From an uncultured Pseudomonadota bacterium (lineage in GTDB: Bacteria > Pseudomonadota > Alphaproteobacteria > UBA9219), in NCBI GenBank assembly GCA_903824505.1, contig CAIJXG010000045.1, positions 756 to 64,755 on the forward strand: a stretch of DNA of 64,000 nucleotides, read 5' to 3'. Below, one piece after another: positions 12,386 through 22,613 of the stretch (the first letter of the stretch is position 1; every line of letters begins with the position of its first letter). Under the pieces are notes generated by a model. It saw only the letters and a list, made by a program, of their open reading frames with translations. It ran no database searches and had not been told where the DNA came from. The translations under genes and the position numbers were made by a program.

Positions 12386-14212
12386 ATGGAGTATAGACGT
12401 GAGATTGATGGGCTGCGCGCGCTGGCGGTCGTCCCCGTCCTTTTATTTCACGCGGGGTTTAAAACCCTAAGCGGGGGTTTTGTAGGCGTGGACATTTTCT
12501 TTGTCATCAGCGGCTATCTGATTACAAGCATTCTGTTAGCCGATCTTGAGCAGGGGCGTTTCTCAATCGGCAGATTTTATGAAAGACGCGCGCGCCGCAT
12601 TCTGCCTGCCCTTTATCTGGTCATGCTCGTTTGCCTGCCCTTCGCCTATGCATGGATGATGCCCGATGAATTTAAGAATTTTGGGCAGTCTCTTTCGGCA
12701 ACGGCCCTCTTTTCCAACAATCTGCTTCTTTCCCTTACCAGCGGCTATTGGGAGCTCGCCAGCGCCTTCAAACCCCTTCTTCATACATGGAGTCTGGGCG
12801 TTGAGGAGCAATATTACCTTCTTTTTCCCTTTGTGATGCTTCTTATCCTTTGGTTTTTTGGCCCCTTCTATCTGCAGCATTCTCGCAAGGGAAAACTCTT
12901 CGCTGTTCTTGGCTTTTTCATGATCTTAAGCCTCATGGTCTCGGGTCAATTTATTCACAAAAAACCCGATCTTGTTTTTTATATTCTTCCGACACGCGCT
13001 TGGGAGATTTTATCAGGCGCCTTAGCCGCTGTGTTTCTTTTCAAAAAGTCCTGTCCTGTTCATCGGGTCGTTGTGAATCAATACGCCAGTCTTGGGGGTC
13101 TCGCGCTGATCTGTCTTTCTATTTTTCTTTTCGATGCGCGCTATCCCTCGCCGGGATACGACACGCTTATCCCCGTTCTGGGCACCCTTCTTGTGATTCT
13201 TTTTGCTGGGCCTAGGACGCAGGCCGCGCGGTTTCTGGGGTCTCCGTTCATGGTTTCCACGGGCTTGATGAGCTACAGCCTCTATCTCTGGCATCAGCCC
13301 CTTTTGTCCTTTGCGCGCGTTTATTGCGTCACGCCGCCGACCCCTCTTTTTTGCGCCGCGCTCCTTTTGCTCAGCGTCCCTTTGGCCTATCTGTCTTGGC
13401 GCTTTGTCGAAACGCCGTTTCGTGATGGGCGGAGGATCAAGACGAAGACTTTTGTGATCCTTGCCGTGTGTTTTTCTCTCTTCTTTGTCAGCGCAGGACT
13501 CTATCTCAACAAAAGTTATGGCATGCCCACGCGCATGGATGATCCCAGCTTAACGAGTCAGGATCTTGATAAGCGCCTTTATAATGAGAGAGTTTTTGCC
13601 CTGAAACGCGATGCCTTTTCCTCTGATCCAACGCTCAAGCTGTTGGTCATTGGCGATAGCTTCGGCAGAGACTTCGTGAATATGACGCGTGAGACCTTTG
13701 ACACCACACGGCTTGAAATTATTTATCGCGATGATCTGTCCGATTGCATATACCCTTATAAAAGCCCTTTAGAAGAACGTCTTTTTGACTCGGCGCAGGT
13801 GATTGTTTTTGCAAGCGGCTTCCAAGAAGCCTGTCTTGCGCCGGATATTGCATGGGCCACCCATCGAGGAAAGGATATTTTTTATGTCGGCCTTAAACAA
13901 TTCGGATACAATCTGAACTGGTTGATCCGCTTGGATCCGGCCCTGCGGAAGAACCAATATAATCCTTTGTTGGCAGATACGATCAAGCAGGAGGCCTATA
14001 GGACGCGGACGATTCCCCCCGCCCATTTCATCTCTCTTCTAGGGCCGATTACCCGCAACAACGCCATTCCCGTAACCGATGAGGCCGGGCATATTCTAAG
14101 CATGGATCGGATGCATGTGACAAAATACGGCGCTCAATTTTTGGGCGCGCGCGCTCTTTTGCCTAGCCTTTATGGCAAGACTCTGTTGAAATATATTCAG
14201 GATCAGCCTTAA
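12386..14212 (+). CDS. OafA/YrhL-type acyltransferase-3 family protein with C-terminal SGNH-like domain (O-acetyltransferase)
   Basis: EIDGLRALAVVPVLLFHAGF...GVDIFFVISGYLIT...RRILPALY is the acyltransferase-3 signature. It has multiple TM segments and a ~250-aa C-terminal soluble domain; 608 aa. Confidence 0.85.
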   Translation: MEYRREIDGLRALAVVPVLLFHAGFKTLSGGFVGVDIFFVISGYLITSILLADLEQGRFSIGRFYERRARRILPALYLVMLVCLPFAYAWMMPDEFKNFGQSLSATALFSNNLLLSLTSGYWELASAFKPLLHTWSLGVEEQYYLLFPFVMLLILWFFGPFYLQHSRKGKLFAVLGFFMILSLMVSGQFIHKKPDLVFYILPTRAWEILSGALAAVFLFKKSCPVHRVVVNQYASLGGLALICLSIFLFDARYPSPGYDTLIPVLGTLLVILFAGPRTQAARFLGSPFMVSTGLMSYSLYLWHQPLLSFARVYCVTPPTPLFCAALLLLSVPLAYLSWRFVETPFRDGRRIKTKTFVILAVCFSLFFVSAGLYLNKSYGMPTRMDDPSLTSQDLDKRLYNERVFALKRDAFSSDPTLKLLVIGDSFGRDFVNMTRETFDTTRLEIIYRDDLSDCIYPYKSPLEERLFDSAQVIVFASGFQEACLAPDIAWATHRGKDIFYVGLKQFGYNLNWLIRLDPALRKNQYNPLLADTIKQEAYRTRTIPPAHFISLLGPITRNNAIPVTDEAGHILSMDRMHVTKYGAQFLGARALLPSLYGKTLLKYIQDQP

Positions 14213-14408
14213 TATCGACGGTTTCTTTTTGTCTCCTTTGTTCTTGTTGTTTCCTGTCGTTGCGCCCTCGTTGGCCGAGGGAAAGCCGCGCGGCTCCCGT
14301 CTTCTTCCGGAAAGCCTCTTCACAGAAAACCACCTGAGGATCTGGGCCTGTCAAGCTTCCAGCCTCCTGGGTAGTGGGTCAGTTTGAATCTTAACTGAGA
14401 GGCGATAA

Positions 14409-15545
14409 TTAACCTTTGTCTAAAAGAAACAAAAACTCTCTATTCTGCTCTTGTGCGTCACGAAGCCATTCATTAGTCCAGGTCATTCCTGCCATCACAT
14501 TGCGCTTATAGTCTAGCTCGATAACCTCGATAAGCTCCCCTGCATCCCTCATGGCTTCATTTAGTTCTCTAGCTGTTGCCCTTCCACCAGAACTGTATGA
14601 TAGAATTATATATTGGGTTGGGGTGTCCTTGATAAGTTTGTGGATTGCTTCGACAGCTATAAAGTTGCCATCATCATTACGGCGAAACTCTTCAAATATA
14701 GAAGCCGCCACATCATCTCTAGTATCGACTCGTCGATTTACCTTGCCAAAAACTTCGGGTTTGTCGTTCAGGCAAACCGTCGTCCATACATGGTAATAGG
14801 CCGAATAGCGAACGCGAGATGGGGGCATTTTTTCATTATTAGAACCATACGGTGGGTCATAGTAAGCTAGATCGGCCTTAATGCCCAGTGCAATATCAAA
14901 TACATCGCCATTGGTGACTTCATGCACATCCTCACAATCAATAATGTCAGGAACCTGTAGGCGCATGTGTTTAAATGAGCGGGGTGACCAGTCCCGCAGA
15001 TATGAAGAAAAATGCCCTAGCGTGCTGTCAACTTGATCAAGTGCCATCATAAGACTGGTCAAGGCGACAGCTTTTTCGTTAACATCGAGTCCAAGACGAT
15101 CTATTTCTTCCCGTATTCCATCAAGTTTTCGCGTGTTATGAATTTGCCACGGCATTTTTATCGGATTTTCCATGTCAATCGAGGAAGGGTCGCCGCCATA
15201 GTGTTGTGTGAACCACCCATCTCGAGGCTTACATGCGTTCAAATCATCAATGAGTTTCTGATATTTAGTTTTTGAACCTGCCTTTAAATAACAACGCCCT
15301 AATACCTCTGACCAGACAGCGCGGTCATTACAAATTACCTTGTACCCATATCGGGCGAGTGCCTGCGAAACTCTGGTAGAACCAGCGAAGCCATCGAAGA
15401 TAACTTTCGCATCAGTTTTTCCTGCCAACCATAAAATCTGGGGCAGCAATTTTAGTTTTGATCCAGCATACTTGATGCCCTCCGTAGGTGGGGGCACGGG
15501 GTAGCTTGTAGTAAAAAGCTCTTTTTGTAGAGCCAGATGATTCAT
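14409..15545 (-). CDS. Dam-family (D12 class) N6-adenine DNA methyltransferase
   Basis: N-terminal IKYAGSKLKLLPQILWL (Dam-like xxAGGK motif), FDGFAGSTRV (AdoMet motif I) and DPPYG catalytic motif IV; 378 aa. Confidence 0.8.
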   Translation of the reverse strand: MNHLALQKELFTTSYPVPPPTEGIKYAGSKLKLLPQILWLAGKTDAKVIFDGFAGSTRVSQALARYGYKVICNDRAVWSEVLGRCYLKAGSKTKYQKLIDDLNACKPRDGWFTQHYGGDPSSIDMENPIKMPWQIHNTRKLDGIREEIDRLGLDVNEKAVALTSLMMALDQVDSTLGHFSSYLRDWSPRSFKHMRLQVPDIIDCEDVHEVTNGDVFDIALGIKADLAYYDPPYGSNNEKMPPSRVRYSAYYHVWTTVCLNDKPEVFGKVNRRVDTRDDVAASIFEEFRRNDDGNFIAVEAIHKLIKDTPTQYIILSYSSGGRATARELNEAMRDAGELIEVIELDYKRNVMAGMTWTNEWLRDAQEQNREFLFLLDKG

Positions 15546-16420
15546 AATTGGTTGCTTTCTTTTAACTGCTGAATATCTTTTTTAATTTCAATGAGTGCCC
15601 TGTCATGTCCGGCACTTGATGAAACAAGAGCATGAGAAAACAACTGCACCAGTATCTTGTTGTGGGAATAATCGACCCATCCACTAGTGATGCTGTCGAA
15701 ATGCTTTAATGCGTTGCGAGTATGTGTCCATAAGCCACGTTGTAGGGCGTTTGCTGCGGCATCCCCATATCTAACTTCGCAAATATAATCATTGTTACTA
15801 TCATAGAATCGAAAAACAGGATGCTTTCTTCCGCTGCCTTCATGGGCACGCTCTATCTTTGCTGTCTGGGTACGAGCCGCTTCATAATCGAAAACCAAAA
15901 TGTTACATCTTTGTTTTTTCTCATCGTATATGAGAGGCAATACATTAATCTGCAAGAACACAGCAAACGCAGGGTCAGAAAAAATTGCATCAATTCTCTC
16001 GCGTCCCTCGATGATGTGATCAATCTCTTTCATCAATCTGGGATACATCAACGTATTTTTATCGGTTGATAATTGAAGGGGGCCGTCACCATACGCCTTT
16101 AAGCTAACTGGAAATTGGGCTTTAGTGATTTCGTTGGTAATAGTGATGTCTTCTTCTCTCGACTTTGCTCGATATAAGTCTTTGCCCACATGGAGTGACT
16201 TAAAGTCATACATGTATTGGTTGATAAATTCAGCTATTGCAATCTCAGCCAAATCACCATGAGTTTTATTTCCTATGAGGCGCATCGTGAAAATGTTGCT
16301 CAGTGTCGTTGTTATTAATGCAGGATGTTTGCTTATAAACAGCTTCAACCTGTTGGTAAAATCTTTATACGGGTTTTGATCGGTCATTGTTGATCTGTTT
16401 CGTGTGATGTTAAACGGCAT
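15542..16420 (-). CDS. Putative type II restriction endonuclease (cognate partner of the Dam-family methyltransferase)
   Basis: 292-aa ORF whose stop overlaps the MTase start by 4 nt. No MTase motifs. Possible PD-(D/E)xK-like region (...SDPAF...IYDEKK...). The call rests on context. Confidence 0.45.
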   Translation of the reverse strand: MPFNITRNRSTMTDQNPYKDFTNRLKLFISKHPALITTTLSNIFTMRLIGNKTHGDLAEIAIAEFINQYMYDFKSLHVGKDLYRAKSREEDITITNEITKAQFPVSLKAYGDGPLQLSTDKNTLMYPRLMKEIDHIIEGRERIDAIFSDPAFAVFLQINVLPLIYDEKKQRCNILVFDYEAARTQTAKIERAHEGSGRKHPVFRFYDSNNDYICEVRYGDAAANALQRGLWTHTRNALKHFDSITSGWVDYSHNKILVQLFSHALVSSSAGHDRALIEIKKDIQQLKESNQL

Positions 16421-16423
16421 TTT

Positions 16424-17269
16424 TCAGCCAACCATTTTGTTAGCCTCCCACTCATCAGTGATTCGCACAATATCTTCGATAGAGAATAGCGTTTCACTCA
16501 CACCCGCCGCTATTGCAGGGCTTACCCGCAAAGTCTGGTGAATACGCACAAAATTATAGTGCATGAAGTAAATCGCCAGCGCGTAGTAATGGTTTTCAAT
16601 CTTTTTTGAAAACGCATTGGTTAGGCGCGTAAAGCGGCGGTTGCCCATACGGATATTTAGGTTCTGGCGTTCAACATAGCTTGTCGAAACGTGTTTTCCG
16701 TCGGGATTGCCTCTTATTACCTCCTTGCGAGAAGCAACGTATTCCGCAGGGCTATAACGCTTCTCGCCAGAAAAATCTGCGCCGTATATTTTTACAAGTT
16801 GGGCAAAATCAATATCATTCCCGAAAGCACCCTCTACAGCTTCAACATAAGCTTTCAAGCCGTCGCTGGTAAGCTGGACACGATTTGCAAGACGGCTTGC
16901 CAGATCGGATATAAACGCCTTGGCGCATTCGCCGTCGCGTCCACCAAGATAGAATGAAGGAACAAGTTTGGTATCGGCATCAATCGCTGTCCATGTCCAA
17001 ACATCACCAGCTTCGCCAAGCTTTTCCTCTGGCACATTCTTGGCCTTCGCATAAACGAAAGACCAAATTTCATCGACCTGTAAACGCCTGCATGACAGAT
17101 TACGAAAGGCCCCATCCTGATAATCAGCGCAGGCCTTCCCTGCATCAACCAGAAGCTTTGCAATCGTATTTTTGCTTGCTCCGGTTAAGCGGCTGATAGA
17201 ACGAATAGACATACCCTCAACCATCATGCCGAGGATTTGTGCGCGTTGTGTGGTGGAAAGCTTATTCAT
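16424..17269 (-). CDS. DDE transposase (IS1/IS1595-like)
   Basis: N-terminal HTH (QRAQILGMMVEGMSIRSISRLTGASKNTIAKLL), then LQVDEIWSFVYAK...WTWTAIDADTKLV...LTSDGLKAY, typical of IS1/IS1595-type DDE cores. Its stop is 3 nt before the REase start codon. Confidence 0.7.
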   Translation of the reverse strand: MNKLSTTQRAQILGMMVEGMSIRSISRLTGASKNTIAKLLVDAGKACADYQDGAFRNLSCRRLQVDEIWSFVYAKAKNVPEEKLGEAGDVWTWTAIDADTKLVPSFYLGGRDGECAKAFISDLASRLANRVQLTSDGLKAYVEAVEGAFGNDIDFAQLVKIYGADFSGEKRYSPAEYVASRKEVIRGNPDGKHVSTSYVERQNLNIRMGNRRFTRLTNAFSKKIENHYYALAIYFMHYNFVRIHQTLRVSPAIAAGVSETLFSIEDIVRITDEWEANKMVG

Positions 17270-17371
17270 AATGACTCTTATACTTGAGAATGATTATTTT
17301 GTCAATAAGCAAAAGTAGAATAATTGCTATTTTTCCTTTGACTCTTGGTTATTGATTGGGGCATAAGCAAT

Positions 17372-17402
17372 GAACGGTTCAGAAGATGTTTCTGAACCGT
17401 TC
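17372..17402. promoter_or_regulatory. Perfect 13-bp stem / 5-nt loop hairpin in the divergent region between the transposase and HTH genes
   Basis: gaacggttcagaa-gatgt-ttctgaaccgttc. It lies upstream of both divergent genes, so it is not a terminator for either. It may be an operator or an element end. Confidence 0.4.
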
Positions 17403-17565
17403 CAAAACCTAGGGGGTTTTATGTACTTGCTTAGAGAGATATAGTCCTAACCCACGACGCCATGATGCTTTGACCGGCCTTGAGCGTTTAGTGGTACGGA
17501 CGAGAACGGGTTGAAAGACCCGCCCCTTTGTAGGGACATATAAACATATATTGACGGTGTAAGCA

Positions 17566-17988
17566 ATGAAAAACATCCAATCGCCCGTGGGCGAACGTGG
17601 CTTCTCTCTGCTTGATTTAAAAGCAAAAGAAGTAGAGTTAGAGGACGCATTAAAACAAGTAAAAGATGCTATCCAAGTATTTGATAAATTGGAAAAAAGC
17701 GGTATTTTTCCGAAGTATGGCATTGTGGCAGAAACGCCATTATTCGAGCCATTGTATAAACAAGGTGAGTTTGCAGATTTAAGCGTATATGAAGGGGCTG
17801 TTTCACTTCTAATGCAGAAAAAACAATCACTTACAACAGATGAAATTGTTGACGGTCTTATTAATGGGGGCAAAAAAATAGGTGATAATGCTCGCGTAAT
17901 AGTGGCAACTACACTTTATAAGTCGGTAAAAAAGAAGAAAAATTGCAAGATAGCGGTGGCGGGTACCGGAAAGTGGAAACTAGCTTAG
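17566..17988 (+). CDS. Small HTH-like protein (HARE-HTH-like winged helix?)
   Basis: SLTTDEIVDGLINGGKKIGDNARVIVATTLYKSVKKK resembles HARE-type winged-helix segments; 140 aa; AT-rich. Confidence 0.45.
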   Translation: MKNIQSPVGERGFSLLDLKAKEVELEDALKQVKDAIQVFDKLEKSGIFPKYGIVAETPLFEPLYKQGEFADLSVYEGAVSLLMQKKQSLTTDEIVDGLINGGKKIGDNARVIVATTLYKSVKKKKNCKIAVAGTGKWKLA

Positions 17989-18221
17989 GGCTTTTCCCAT
18001 CTAGCTTTAATAGCTTTCTGGGCTATTTCCTTGCGTTTTTTGGATGATAGGGCTGCTGCTCTAGCTTTCCCACCTATCGTGCCACCTTTTTTGCCGCGCT
18101 CGACCGCATCGGGGCTTTTCCCATCCTCAACCTTATCGACGGTCTGCCCCGTGGCTATGTCGCCAATAAGCTTGGCGAGTTGAAGCGGGTCGCGGGGTCT
18201 TTTGATGCGTTTTATTGCCAT
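17985..18221 (-). CDS. Small basic protein with GGKARAxxLSxxxRKEIAQKAxKARW motif (uncharacterised, typical of mobile-element cargo)
   Basis: 78 aa, Lys/Arg/Gly-rich, convergent 4-nt tail overlap with the HTH gene. Confidence 0.4.
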   Translation of the reverse strand: MAIKRIKRPRDPLQLAKLIGDIATGQTVDKVEDGKSPDAVERGKKGGTIGGKARAAALSSKKRKEIAQKAIKARWEKP

Positions 18222-18494
18222 ACTCCTATTATGGCATGGATTGTGAACAGGTCAAAAAATTTCAGATTTCAAACTGACCCACTACCGCCTCCTGAGGTTT
18301 CTGTCGGACGGCATGCCGCCCATTGAAAAAGTCTTTCTCAGCCCGCCAGTTTCCTAGGATAGCGGGAGGAGGTTTGACCCTTCCAACGCTCCTCTTTCAA
18401 GAAGCGTGAGGGATATATAACCTAGTAAAGTGGGAAAGTCAACATGTTTTTTTAAAAAATGTGAAAAATCTTTTTTTGCTTCTTTTTATAAGGA

Positions 18495-18600: not shown

Positions 18601-20271
18601 ATGTCTCTGTGCATCCAATATAGCCGCCCCGATTCCGGCCAAGAGGAAGGCGAAGTTTACGGCCTTGACGTCGCCGTCACGCGCTTTCTTTCGGCGTGGT
18701 TTCGCTATGGCACCGCGCGGCCTTTTCTGTGCCGTCCCACAACTTTGGAGAGTTTCGATCATTTTAAAGAGGTCGCGGCGTCCCAAGGGATCGATGCCGA
18801 AAAGGACTGTATCGGGTTGGATCCTCGGCATCCTGAAAAGAATCTGCAAACTCTTTCCTGCATCTTTCGGCCCGATCCCTTAACGGCGGATCTTGTCTGG
18901 CGGCGGGTACAAATGCGCGGCAGCGGCTTTGCTACTTGTGGGCTTGTGCATACCATGAGCGGTGAGCGTATCGCCCAAGCCGCATGCGATTTGATGCTGG
19001 CCCCCAGTGACGCGACAGACGCGCTGATTTGCCCGTCTCAGGCGATAGGCGCGGCCGTCCGGAATTTATGGGACATTCAAGCTGATTATTTTAAACACCG
19101 TTTCGGCGGATCTTTCACCTGTCCCGTTCAAACACCTGTTTTGCCGATTGGGATCGATACGCAGATTTTTGAAGGCCGCACCACGCCCGAGAAAAGACAG
19201 GCTCAACGGGCGCAGCTGAATAGTCCTGAAGACGAAATCATTATTCTTTTTGTAGGACGGCTGAGCTTTGCGACCAAGGCTCATCCGCTGCCTTTGTTGA
19301 TGGCGGCCGATCGCGCGGCGCGCGGAACAAAAAAGAGAATCCGCCTTGTCCTGTATGGCTATTTCAAGCCCAAGGATATGGAAACGCCGTTCCGCGCTTT
19401 GGCGGCGGATTATGCAGGCGCGGCACAGGTAACGTTCGTTCAAAATGGCGATCCGCGCTTTCCAGACGGGCTTTGGGCCGCCGCAGATATTTTCGCGTCT
19501 TTATCCGACAATGTGCAGGAAAGTTTCGGCCTCACCCCCCTTGAAGCGATGGCCAGCGGGCTTCCGGCGGTTGTCAGCGATTGGGACGGGTATCGAGAAG
19601 GCATCCGAAATGGCGAAGAAGGTTTTTTGATCCCGACTCTGACGCCCCCCGAATCCGCGGGGATGGCTCTGGCCCAAACTTATTATAATGAAGGCAATTA
19701 TGGAGTCGCCTTGACGGCTGCCGCCCAAAGCACGGCGATAGACGTGGACGAGGCCGCCCGCGCCTTCAGCCTGTTGGCGACAGATGCCAATCTGCGCAGC
19801 AGGATGGGAGAGAAGGGCCGTGCCCGCGCCCGCGCCGTTTTCGATTGGCAACCTGTGATGCGTTCTTATGAGGCTCTATGGGCCGACCTTGCCGAAAAAC
19901 GGCGCATGATGCCACGAGCCCCCGCAACGCCCGAAAATTGGGCGGCCGCGCACCCCTCTTTCCCGAACCCGTGGCGCATGTTTGCGCGTTTTCCGACAAC
20001 CCCCATTCTGCCCACGGATATTCTGCACGCGGTGATGGGGGCAGAAGAAGTCACAACGCTTCTGAAACATGAAATGAATTTCTTCGTCCCCGCTTTGCTT
20101 GTGCCCCGCGAGACTCTTCTCGAGCTGATCGCCCTGATTCGCCGCGCAGGATCGGTCCATGTGCAAGATCTTCTCGCGCCCTTTCCGACAGAACGACAGG
20201 ACAGCCTGTGGCGCTGCATCGGCTGGATGGTCAAATATGGGGTCTGTCGCCTGCAACGGGTTGGGGGGTAG
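18601..20271 (+). CDS. Glycosyltransferase (GT4/GT1-like, glycos_transf_1 C-terminal domain)
   Basis: ESFGLTPLEAMASGLPAVVSDWDGYREGI is the canonical GT4 E-x7-E region; 556 aa with a long N-terminal domain. Confidence 0.75.
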   Translation: MSLCIQYSRPDSGQEEGEVYGLDVAVTRFLSAWFRYGTARPFLCRPTTLESFDHFKEVAASQGIDAEKDCIGLDPRHPEKNLQTLSCIFRPDPLTADLVWRRVQMRGSGFATCGLVHTMSGERIAQAACDLMLAPSDATDALICPSQAIGAAVRNLWDIQADYFKHRFGGSFTCPVQTPVLPIGIDTQIFEGRTTPEKRQAQRAQLNSPEDEIIILFVGRLSFATKAHPLPLLMAADRAARGTKKRIRLVLYGYFKPKDMETPFRALAADYAGAAQVTFVQNGDPRFPDGLWAAADIFASLSDNVQESFGLTPLEAMASGLPAVVSDWDGYREGIRNGEEGFLIPTLTPPESAGMALAQTYYNEGNYGVALTAAAQSTAIDVDEAARAFSLLATDANLRSRMGEKGRARARAVFDWQPVMRSYEALWADLAEKRRMMPRAPATPENWAAAHPSFPNPWRMFARFPTTPILPTDILHAVMGAEEVTTLLKHEMNFFVPALLVPRETLLELIALIRRAGSVHVQDLLAPFPTERQDSLWRCIGWMVKYGVCRLQRVGG

Positions 20272-21840
20272 GCCGTGCTAGCGTTTTTTGGAAACCTCGC
20301 CGAACAAGAAGCCTCCATATATCCTGTCCTCGCACGACGCCCGAAAAATGCAACGCCACCCCATAGGCAAGGCTTGATGCCCCTATCAGCGCAGAAAGGG
20401 CGAGGATTTCTTGGATCAAAGAAGGGGCACTGATCCGATCCCACAAAAAGTGATCGAGCGCGAGGCAGAGCAAGCCCATCCAAAGGGCGCAGAGGATCAG
20501 TTTGCGGATCAAAACCGGAAGAGTTGCCTCGGCCAGTTGGATGCGTTTTTGCCTCAAGCGCCGCAGCAAAAACGCGGCGTTGATCCAGACGGCAAGGCTG
20601 CTGGCCAGCGCGATTCCGACAGGCCCCATGGGGCCAACCAAAAGAACCGCTCCGGCAATATTCGCGCCGATGGCGATCAGAGCGATGCGGACGGGCGTTT
20701 TTGTATCGTGTCGAGCGAAGAATCCCGCTGCAAAGACTTTAACCAACAGAAAAGCCGGAACGCCCAGAGCATAGGCTGCAAGGACTTGGGCTGTGGCTTT
20801 CGTATCCTCTGCGGTAAAGGCGCCATGTTGGAAAAGCGTTTGAATAATGGGCGTTGCGAGAAGCGACAGGCCCAGCGTGGCGGGCAGCCCCAGCGCGAGA
20901 CAAAAGACGATTGCGCGGCTGTTGAGACGACGCGCCTGATCCTCCTCTCCGGCTTCGATATGCCGCGTCAACAAGGGCAAGAGGGTTGTCGCGACCGCTA
21001 TGCCGATGATCCCCAAAGGAGTTGATTGAGACGATCCGCATAGAACAAATAGGAAACAGCTCCGGTTGGCAGGGTTGAGGCCAGAATCGTTGAAACCAAA
21101 AGATTAATTTGCGCCGCCCCCGCGCCGACTGCGCCGGGGCCAATACGGTGAAAAAGTTTTCGAACAGCCTCGCCAAAATGGGGTTTCAAAAGAGGAATTG
21201 CAAGCCGCGCGCGGGCGCAACTGATGGCAAGCCACACGCATTGCACCGCACCCGACACCGTGACGGCCCAAGCGAGGGTCAAGGCGACATCCCAGCCGAA
21301 AAACTGGGCCAACAGCATTCCCGCGATCAGAACCAGATTAAGAGCAATAGGCGCAGCTGCGCCCGGCCCAAAACGCCCGCGTGCGTTTAAAACCCCCGTT
21401 TGCAGAGCGGTCACCGAGATCAGGGCCAGATAGGGAAAGGTAATCGTTGAAAAACGTACCGCCAGATCGAATTTCTGCGGATCATGTTCAAAGCCCGGGG
21501 CAAGAATCAGCATCAATTTTGGCATCCAAAACATGACCAGAATTGAAAAAGGCAAAAGAAAAGCCAGCAGAGCCATCAGCGCTTGCCCAGCAAAACGCTG
21601 CGCGGCTTCTTCGCCGTGCCGTTCATGCTCGATCGTATAAAGGGGAACGAAGGCCGCTGAAAATGCGCCTTCGGCAAACAGGCTGCGGAAAAGGTTCGGA
21701 AGACGTTGGGCGACAAAAAACGCATCGGCCTCCATCCCTGCGCCTAAAAATACCGCCGTCAGAGAATCGCGAATGAATCCGCCTATGCGGCTCAGCAGGG
21801 TCAGGCCGCTGACGGTGGCAAGGGCGCGCCCGAAGCTCAT
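20231..21840 (-). pseudogene. murJ: Lipid II flippase MurJ, interrupted by a 1-nt frameshift
   Basis: The N-terminal part (20998..21840, MSFGRALATVSGLTLLSRIGGFIRD...VSYLFYADRLNQL) and the C-terminal part (20231..21016, LGIIGIAVATTLLPLLTRH...) match MurJ consecutively. The frames differ by -1 at the run ctcc[c]tttgggg near 21011-21021. Confidence 0.7.
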
Positions 21841-22613
21841 GGTGCGTCTATAATCTGATAGAGGATAATAAAGACCAAGGCAGCGCATAAAGCGGGGGCA
21901 AAGGGAAATTGTTTGCTGCCGTCTTTCGATCGATGCAGAAGGGAAAACAAAACGCCAATCAACCCGCCAAGGCCCAGAAACCATGGGGCGGAATGGGGGT
22001 GCAGCCAGAATCCGGCCGCCGCGAAGAATTTGACATCCCCCAGCCCAAGCATCTCGATGCCGCGCCATTTGCTGTAGACCAGAGCCAGAAAAAGCCCCAA
22101 CCCCAGCAAAGCGCCCGCGACGGCAACGCCCAGATAAAGATCCGCGCCGCTAAGTTCCAAAAAGATGATTCCCAAAATCCCCAACAGCAAATTATGCCCG
22201 TCCGGAATAATCCCGTAATGAAGATCCACGAGCGCCAGCGCAGGCAAAAGCCCCATCACCAAGCAAAGAGGAACCGCCGTCAGCGACCAATCTTGAAGAT
22301 ACATCGCCAGAATTCCCAAAAGGAATCCCATCAATTCGGCCACCGGCTGTTGCCAAAGTTTTTTGCGTAATCCGCAAGGGCAAGGAAAAGAAAATGTACC
22401 CGGCCGCAAGAGCCAGCCGATCAAGGGAAGCGCTTCTTGCCCCGTTAAAGGCCTGAAACACCACGCGCAATGAGGGAATCGGCTCTCCCCGGGCATGCGG
22501 TCGGCCGACCGCATGCCGAAGGTCAGACACAGGCTGGCAGCCAACAGCCCCAGCCCTCCCCCCGCCAGAAGATGAAGGATATTCGCGATCAGATGGTGGG
22601 GATGATGGGACAT
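21837..22613 (-). CDS. Prepilin peptidase (A24 family; TadV/CpaA/PilD-like)
   Basis: Polytopic membrane protein with the GDVKF active-site motif; 258 aa. Its stop overlaps the murJ start (ATGA). Confidence 0.75.
   Translation of the reverse strand: MSHHPHHLIANILHLLAGGGLGLLAASLCLTFGMRSADRMPGESRFPHCAWCFRPLTGQEALPLIGWLLRPGTFSFPCPCGLRKKLWQQPVAELMGFLLGILAMYLQDWSLTAVPLCLVMGLLPALALVDLHYGIIPDGHNLLLGILGIIFLELSGADLYLGVAVAGALLGLGLFLALVYSKWRGIEMLGLGDVKFFAAAGFWLHPHSAPWFLGLGGLIGVLFSLLHRSKDGSKQFPFAPALCAALVFIILYQIIDAP

Follow-up and report, generated by a model that had tools for sequence, protein, structure and literature searches.

How does a complete restriction-modification (R-M) system come to lie beside a transposase gene, between a single pair of inverted repeats? 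The question is raised by 64,000 nucleotides of DNA from an uncultured Pseudomonadota bacterium (Alphaproteobacteria; UBA9219), taken from assembly GCA_903824505.1 (contig CAIJXG010000045.1, positions 756 to 64,755) and referred to here as the window; unless stated otherwise, coordinates are those of this stretch. An initial annotation had seen in it a transposon-borne R-M cargo, and this reading stands: the locus combines IS1-type ends, a perfect 8-bp target duplication, a DDE transposase and an intact R-M pair. It is very likely that positions 14370–18286 are a transporter insertion sequence (tIS), an insertion sequence (IS) with passenger genes, which belongs to a divergent branch of the IS1 family with a single transposase open reading frame (ORF) and carries an SspI-like Type II R-M pair. 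In the direction of the transposase gene, the element consists of a left inverted repeat, a promoter-like site, a small gene (p78), a first cargo slot (a 140-residue gene on the opposite strand), the transposase gene, a second cargo slot (the restriction endonuclease, REase, and methyltransferase, MTase, genes) and a right inverted repeat.

The ends of the element and its insertion site

The mobile unit is 3,917 bp long (14370–18286). A repeat search of the window found its ends: the arms at 14370–14388 (plus strand; the right, cargo end relative to the transposase direction) and 18268–18286 (minus strand; the left, p78 end) form a perfect terminal inverted repeat, GGTAGTGGGTCAGTTTGAA, in which 19 of 19 positions pair, and when both ends are read out the identity between the arms ends at position 20. 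At up to three mismatches the 19-mer has two copies only in the window, and it was found in none of 100 shuffles. Directly outside both arms lies an 8-bp perfect direct repeat, GCCTCCTG (14362–14369 and 18287–18294), which is the target-site duplication. The initial annotation had placed inverted repeats of ~30–40 bp at 14363–14391 and 18264–18297: there is indeed a bracketing repeat, which at closer measure is 19 bp of inverted repeat plus 8 bp of direct repeat. The sole evidence that the window copy transposed as a whole unit is the perfect duplication that surrounds it. A composite transposon made of two IS copies is ruled out: there is one transposase and one pair of ends.

The block had also been described as AT-rich relative to its flanks, and its GC content is 0.437 versus 0.545 in the remaining window. 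The insertion point is the spacer between an Acyl_transf_3 gene (12386–14212) and a GT4 glycosyltransferase gene (18601–20271), and both host genes are intact. The ORF listing agrees with the initial annotation on all five ORFs of the unit, in coordinates and strands; an Rfam scan of the window returned three tRNAs only, none of them inside the element.

Could this arrangement be an artifact, a chimera of a metagenome-assembled genome (MAG)? The source, an uncultured alphaproteobacterium, is known only from assemblies, and the window holds a frameshifted murJ gene that is intact in sibling contigs. Yet several independent assemblies agree on the gene order of the element, and the junction between its left end and the host is reproduced in an independent Logan assembly (L001), 100% identical over window 16032–18460, a segment that starts within the REase gene and crosses the left end into host DNA. 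Nor does a chimera produce a perfect inverted repeat together with a target duplication, and we regard one as highly improbable.

The transposase and its family

Where does the transposase belong? Its gene (16424–17269, minus strand) is one uninterrupted ORF for a 281-residue protein with an N-terminal helix-turn-helix (HTH), which scores 31.1 bits against the Pfam profile DDE_Tnp_IS1 (PF03400; cut-off 24.1). Relatives on RefSeq plasmids, 59–65% identical, are annotated as “IS1 family transposase.” D66, D136 and E200 are at least 97% conserved among 67 relatives (element-level counts here and below cover the 67 loci where both ends could be located), which together with the profile match upholds the earlier call of a DDE transposase. 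A sequence search against PDB chains gave no match. GGnnnTG ends and 8–9-bp target duplications are hallmarks of the IS1 family; the element, with ends that begin GGTAGTG and a duplication of 8 bp, fits them. By its profile matches and relatives, then, the transposase is a member of the IS1 family, in a divergent single-ORF branch.

The element resembles E. coli IS1 and its family in having a DDE transposase that matches the IS1 Pfam profile, in its ends (GGnnnTG, terminal repeats of ~20 bp, an 8–9-bp target duplication) and in a small first ORF that lies at the left end, on the same strand as the transposase, with a promoter beside the left inverted repeat. It differs in that the transposase is a single 281-residue ORF with its own HTH, whereas that of IS1 is an InsA-InsB′ frameshift fusion: the insA/insB′ programmed-frameshift arrangement of the classical IS1 group is absent here. 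Also unlike IS1, elements of the window lineage are 2–7.5 kb long, with always at least ~0.9 kb from the left end to the transposase gene. ISfinder lists IS1-family members of up to ~4.6 kb (the ISMhu11 subgroup).

The restriction-modification cargo

What does the element carry? Slot 2 holds two genes on the minus strand. Cargo gene 1 (15542–16387; 281 residues from the likely start) encodes a predicted Type II REase of an SspI-like family, and cargo gene 2 (14409–15545; 378 residues) a Type II N6-adenine MTase of the D12 class, as judged from Pfam, PADLOC and motifs; the genes overlap by 4 nt (ATGA, 15542–15545), as reported initially. Another in-frame ATG lies upstream at 16420, 3 nt beyond the stop codon of the transposase; it would add 11 residues and give the 292-residue ORF of the initial annotation. 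The REase has 3,825 homologs, the best 120 of which are 73–95% identical, mostly 278–282 residues long (range 247–333), and cover ~96% of the query; given these lengths and this coverage, the likely start is M12 (16387), and the gap to the transposase stop is 36 nt. The 3-nt gap noted earlier thus holds for the longest ORF and not for the likely start.

Is the REase a nuclease, and is it new? It had been taken for a likely restriction endonuclease, perhaps of a new family, and searches of Pfam and NCBIfam models with the REase, and of PDB chains by sequence (with the REase, its family profile and the MTase), gave no match, as one would expect of a novel enzyme; tblastn against PLSDB plasmids gave none for the REase either. 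A new family is nevertheless next to impossible. The REase matches the REBASE-derived REase_II model PDLC03568 of PADLOC (281 positions) over practically its full length (E 7.8e-144, covering 4–278), it has thousands of homologs, and one of them, a 75%-identical protein from Neokomagataea (P0086), is named SspI in UniRef. In fold comparisons, the predicted REase model is closest to PD-(D/E)XK Type II REases and has a nuclease fold with its catalytic residues in place; several of the top fold matches are blunt cutters. The assignment as a restriction endonuclease is therefore borne out, and the novelty is not. At 50% identity the compact family falls into 271 clusters, many of which are fragments, and close homologs occur in Alphaproteobacteria, Nitrospira, Terriglobia and Phycisphaerae. 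The MTase matches the PADLOC model MTase_II PDLC03342 over its full length (E 9.4e-152) and Pfam MethyltransfD12 (E 3.6e-19), and its translation has FxGxG before a DPPY motif.

Which site would the pair recognize? It is a known kind of Type II system and probably specific for AATATT. SspI, which cuts at AATATT, is blocked by N6-methyladenine (m6A; PMC3459991), and this fits an N6-adenine MTase as the partner. The MTase had initially been called a Dam-family enzyme: the D12 class stands in the broad sense only, and the GATC specificity has been dropped, since nothing points to it and the partner REase family argues for a different site. GATC counts in the window (435 observed, 451 expected) have no bearing either way, and the absence of a GATC-like m6A signal, which had been named as a refutation of the R-M reading, would mislead. 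The pair is like the SspI system in the full-length profile matches of both proteins, the 281-residue REase and the N6-adenine MTase partner. It is unlike that system in lying inside an IS and in the in-frame ATG that could lengthen the REase; the SspI name itself comes from the one UniRef record, and the specificity is predicted.

Two side observations concern these genes. Among 80 metagenome R-M loci (L098–L177), the REase is more conserved (71–87% amino acid identity to the window protein) than the MTase (~55–76%); the usual pattern for an REase and its MTase is the reverse. And in the sibling contig HcRfBt4H the REase is called with 247 residues (start M35) in place of 281, with the spacing to its neighbors unchanged; this is either a choice of the gene caller or an N-terminal lesion that inactivates the nuclease.

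How the R-M pair came in

If the element is an IS, where did its cargo come from? In assembly GCA_026225415.1 (L002, 7995–9979), a transposase-free R-M pair sits between rpsD and cytochrome c1 (bc1) genes. Its REase is 95% identical in amino acids to that of the window and its MTase, too, has 378 residues; the DNA identity (82%) is confined to the two R-M ORFs, window 14415–16392. With a GC content of 0.41 versus 0.53 in its flanks, the pair is AT-rich and thus foreign there too. In the 80 metagenome R-M loci, an MTase gene comes next after the REase gene in every case in which the sequence extends that far, and the IS transposase, p78 and the 19-mer were found in none of the 80. The R-M pair is thus shown to be a self-contained two-gene cassette which normally occurs without this IS.

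The backbone, in turn, occurs with another cargo. In L083/L084 it is 98.1% identical to the window over a stretch that begins at the tip of the left end and finishes four codons ahead of the transposase stop; after this breakpoint, one unrelated ORF for a 151-residue membrane protein extends up to the same right end, and the duplication is CCTTTTTC. In that organism, carB shares only 76% identity with its counterpart in the window, so the backbone has passed between distinct hosts, and not long ago; the cargo at slot 2 has been swapped. An R-M pair that normally lacks the IS (in the 80 loci and L002) and a near-identical backbone with other cargo together make the capture a recent one. The packing of the cargo is tight: in the window, the REase gene begins 36 nt (or 3 nt) after the transposase stop, and the right inverted repeat lies 20 nt beyond the stop of the MTase gene; in L083 and L093 there is no gap between the stop codon of the cargo and the right repeat. 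The unrelated ORF of L083 starts 4 nt after the transposase stop, and such close starts, in the window and in L083, hint at translational coupling of slot-2 cargo to the transposase. No signature that would explain the way in which cargo is exchanged was found in the elements compared.

Might the R-M cassette have been the active party, inserting itself into a resident IS or being placed there by recombination between IS copies? R-M units have been reported to insert unaided, in some cases with short target duplications (PMC2853133); this pair is found in many unrelated contexts without the IS and is richer in AT than its flanks in L002, too, and the similarity to the sibling element stops inside the last transposase codons, as expected of a recombination joint. 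However, the borders of the R-M segment inside the element show no repeats or duplication, and slot 2 holds unrelated cargo in many relatives, so that the slot seems to belong to the IS lineage as such. We find such an entry rather doubtful, and it would concern the arrival of the cargo only: the present unit would still move as an IS.

Does the window copy still move?

Several results count against the picture of a mobile, IS1-type carrier of an SspI-like system, and they are best considered together. Exact look-ups of both flanking proteins gave occupied or broken contigs only, and no empty site; a 26-mer across the reconstructed empty site is absent from the metagenome collection searched; and no second copy of the element lies within the 64-kb window. 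With neither a second copy nor an empty site, movement of the R-M-bearing copy is deduced from its anatomy and its relatives. In the lineage, this particular R-M cargo stands alone (1 of the 67 genome elements, none of 109 viral stretches), and nothing indicates that the combination has spread. As for the family, the transposase scores 61.4 bits against NCBIfam transpos_IS1 (NF033558), below the cut-off of 100 (E 1.1e-16, residues 5–146 only), and this score places it in a divergent IS1 branch and not among the close relatives of E. coli IS1. As for the cargo, the AATATT assignment draws on one database name and on the compactness of the family, and applies if the SspI label holds; AATATT occurs 6 times in the host part of the window versus 12 expected, 12th in rank among 6-bp palindromes, and at ~60 kb palindrome avoidance is uninformative as a proxy for specificity.

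Is the element, then, a fixed relic, which inserted once, no longer transposes and leaves the R-M pair as a plain chromosomal defense locus? The single copy in 64 kb and the missing empty site would agree with this, as would the fact that, in every contig that encodes the identical flanking proteins, the element occupies one and the same position. A relic is unlikely all the same: there are no mismatches in the inverted repeats or in the target duplication, the transposase has an unbroken ORF and invariant DDE residues, and a backbone that is 98% identical to a copy in an organism with a merely 76% identical carB speaks of recent activity. Some sibling assemblies, furthermore, break off at the element; breaks at a locus are seen with repeated or polymorphic DNA. 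The transporter IS thus remains the preferred reading, and its relatives add to the picture.

A lineage of related elements

Does this IS stand alone? A scan of reference genomes, one genome per species, gave at least 552 confirmed relatives of the transposase; the best 80 of these are 61–85% identical and come mostly from Alphaproteobacteria, and further relatives come from Binatia, Acidobacteriota, Nitrospinota, Planctomycetota and other groups. A search for units with the same inverted repeats at other loci, proposed in the initial annotation, was rewarding: 67 complete elements, 1,944–7,543 bp long, end in the same 19-mer with 0–4 mismatches. Their end consensus holds over 19–20 positions and then drops sharply, and the 8-bp duplication is perfect at 55 of the 67, with one mismatch at 5 more. 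Two 1,944-bp copies in one MAG (L050/L056) are 100% identical and sit at unrelated sites with different duplications. In one Nitrospinota MAG, two cargo-bearing copies of 3,353 bp (L058 3500–6852 and L063 3500–6852) are likewise 100% identical, at different sites and with different duplications; cargo-bearing members of the lineage therefore transpose as whole units.

Cargo content differs between relatives in both slots: slot 1, which p78 and the transposase gene enclose, and slot 2, which runs from the transposase gene to the right end. It includes a HigB-like toxin with an HTH_3/Peptidase_M78 protein, Fic/DOC, an nSTAND/AAA NTPase, DUF3467, SocA/Panacea, an AAA_21 ATPase, an SDH-type protease, Bro-N, DUF3800, a HARE-HTH protein and HEC-04 (E 2e-46), and, in a relative on an Acidiphilium plasmid, an Xre antitoxin paired with a RES toxin. 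In L058/L063, an RmrT-like protein (PADLOC E 7e-24) adjoins an HTH plus Peptidase_M78 protein, a Rosmer-like pair. Methylases recur: the Craurococcus roseus JCM 9933 element (L009 4782–9872) has, 3′ of its transposase gene, a fusion of Vsr and a C5-methylase with an unannotated 391-residue partner, which may be a second R-M system, and L042 and L065 carry N6_N4 methylases of 456–555 residues downstream of the transposase gene. From its sequence, L042 also looks like the host of a nested IS256-type transposase.

The lineage extends to viruses. The exact 19-mer is present in 109 viral-contig stretches, 35 of which have a transposase homolog. One phage-like stretch (L093 1–14237, on the 18.5-kb contig JGI 3300056815), which has genes for a head-tail connector, Endonuclease_7 and HNH, contains an IS backbone 89% identical to that of the window, a duplication TATAAAAA and a different cargo, an 80-residue ORF; phages may thus ferry elements of the lineage between hosts. 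The viral loci also hold units of 186–784 bp with the same 19-bp ends and perfect 8-bp duplications, which look like derivatives of the miniature inverted-repeat transposable element (MITE) kind, and transposase-less units of 0.9–1.9 kb with perfect duplications. Such short or transposase-less units were noted in the IMG/VR loci L178, L180, L191, L216, L249, L256 and L269, and also in L185, L187, L194 and L257.

Taken together, do these elements form a group of their own? We put this forward tentatively, as a possibility with rather less than even prospects: the window copy would belong to a large, so far undescribed group, an IS1-related shuttle for defense and addiction modules, defined by near-invariant 19-bp ends, p78 and two cargo positions. 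These positions would be nearly ORF-tight, with contents swapped between otherwise 98%-identical backbones, and conflict genes would dominate the cargo (R-M and other methylases, the Rosmer-like RmrT with its HTH-peptidase, HEC-04, HigB, Fic, RES-Xre and SocA/Panacea). A literature search for the lineage found the general concepts (tIS, mobile R-M systems, toxin-antitoxin modules in Tn3) and no description of the lineage; an ISfinder name is possible.

p78 and the left half of the element

What is the conserved gene at the left end? p78 (17985–18221, minus strand) encodes a small basic protein of 78 residues, and all 67 elements have a homolog of it upstream of the transposase gene. Nearly all homologs are encoded on the same strand as the transposase and start ~65–90 bp inside the left end (in some elements, as far in as a few hundred bp); the hits are partial in three of the 67 (L004, L071 and L081), and that of L081 is on the opposite strand. 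p78 is a conserved core gene of the IS lineage and not incidental cargo. Its comparison to KGG proteins falls away as well: there is no Pfam match, and the glycine/lysine-rich stretch is a compositional resemblance only. Searches of Pfam (E up to 0.1), NCBIfam and PADLOC found no match for p78, and none of its 1,495 database homologs is named, with one labeled “histone H1” in an M. loti plasmid. Its predicted structure has four short helices (predicted template modeling score, pTM, 0.36), and Foldseek returned no structural neighbor. The gene lies ~0.7 kb from the transposase gene, with another gene in between.

A promoter-like site (18228–18255, minus strand; TTGACC, 16 nt, TG-CATAAT; 10/12) lies between the left inverted repeat and p78; promoter-like sites in the region are in total no more numerous than in shuffles, and this one is a consensus match only. 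In having such a site between the left end and the first gene, p78 is like insA of IS1; unlike InsA, to which no similarity could be detected, it has no cysteines for a zinc finger.

Slot 1 holds an accessory gene for a 140-residue protein (17566–17988, plus strand), possibly with a coiled coil plus a winged helix. It overlaps p78 at 17985–17988, in the tail-to-tail arrangement first described, and is retained in the sibling elements L083 and L093. The protein had been called HARE-HTH-like. Direct searches of Pfam (E up to 1), NCBIfam and PADLOC gave no match; what is left of the call is a weak transitive link, through the slot-1 protein of L057, which is 26.5% identical over 132 residues (E 5e-4) and itself matches Pfam HARE-HTH (PF05066; E 3.6e-8). 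A HARE-HTH-like nature is therefore possible, if weakly supported. A repeat search found a 13-bp perfect hairpin with a 5-nt loop (17372–17402; GAACGGTTCAGAA...TTCTGAACCGTTC) in the 296 bp that separate the divergent transposase and 140-residue genes. The hairpin has no T-run after it on either strand and is, for this reason, more likely a candidate operator than a terminator.

Neighboring host genes

Two side observations concern the genes beyond the left end. murJ is split (20231–22068) into overlapping ORFs in different frames, an N-terminal part at 20998–22068 and a C-terminal part at 20231–21016, and sibling contigs have a single 536-residue MurJ at the same place; the split is probably a frameshift error in the assembly, or otherwise a pseudogene of an essential gene. 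The glycosyltransferase gene at 18601–20271 matches Pfam “GT4-conflict” exactly at the gathering score (26.0 bits) and has strong Glycos_transf_1 hits; the Pfam label denotes a family-4 glycosyltransferase of conflict systems.

Working of the element and comparison with known systems

How would such an element work? The transposase would bind both 19-bp ends and move everything between them, so that the R-M pair would travel with the element. The R-M genes would be read through from the transposase gene or translationally coupled to it: no terminator-like site was found between the transposase gene and the R-M genes, and with the short gap this makes co-transcription plausible. The MTase would protect host DNA, most likely at AATATT through m6A, while the REase would cut unmodified incoming DNA, a defense, and would penalize loss of the element by post-segregational killing, which is established for Type II R-M systems generally. 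Defense and loss penalty together would stabilize the IS in its host.

Neither part of this design is new in kind, and no new nuclease family was found: passenger-carrying ISs and mobile R-M systems are already known. tIS is an accepted category (PMC9330008, PMC7986276), and the element is like other tISs in having passengers that are dispensable for transposition (here the REase, MTase and 140-residue genes), one pair of IS ends and one transposase. It is unlike them in that the passengers make up a complete Type II R-M system and in that its lineage possesses two defined positions for cargo as well as one more conserved gene. Furuta, Abe and Kobayashi (2010, PMC2853133) described R-M units, e.g., in Xanthomonas oryzae, that have inverted repeats and 8-bp target duplications, and also a linkage of R-M genes to transposases. 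For the PaeR7I R-M system, experiments have demonstrated IS-linked movement (Takahashi et al. 2011, PMC3031569). These units share with ours R-M genes within inverted repeats and an 8-bp duplication, or a link to a transposase; they differ in having long imperfect repeats without their own transposase, or in having moved via flanking IS copies, whereas the window pair lies inside an autonomous IS, beside its transposase. Many Tn3-family transposons contain toxin-antitoxin pairs as integral components (Lima-Mendez et al. 2020, PMC7157771). There, too, an addiction-type module sits beside transposition genes, with a proposed role in stabilizing the element or its carrier; the transposon family and mechanism are different, and the module in the window is an R-M system, with toxin-antitoxin pairs found in relatives of the IS.

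What does the finding mean? The spread of R-M systems is usually inferred from patchy phylogeny and neighboring mobility genes; the window provides a clean natural case, an intact Type II R-M pair inside a DDE transposon with perfect ends and a perfect duplication. The unit can be cloned directly for studies of R-M transposition, of transposon stabilization by post-segregational killing and of phage defense, and since the REase family has neither a solved structure nor a Pfam model, a clearly annotated member is of some practical value. The lineage looks like a compact carrier of defense and toxin-antitoxin modules, and its presence in phage contigs bears on the turnover of defense genes. If the tentative reading is true, the lineage would be a dedicated small carrier for defense and addiction modules, with cassette exchange and an accessory protein of its own.

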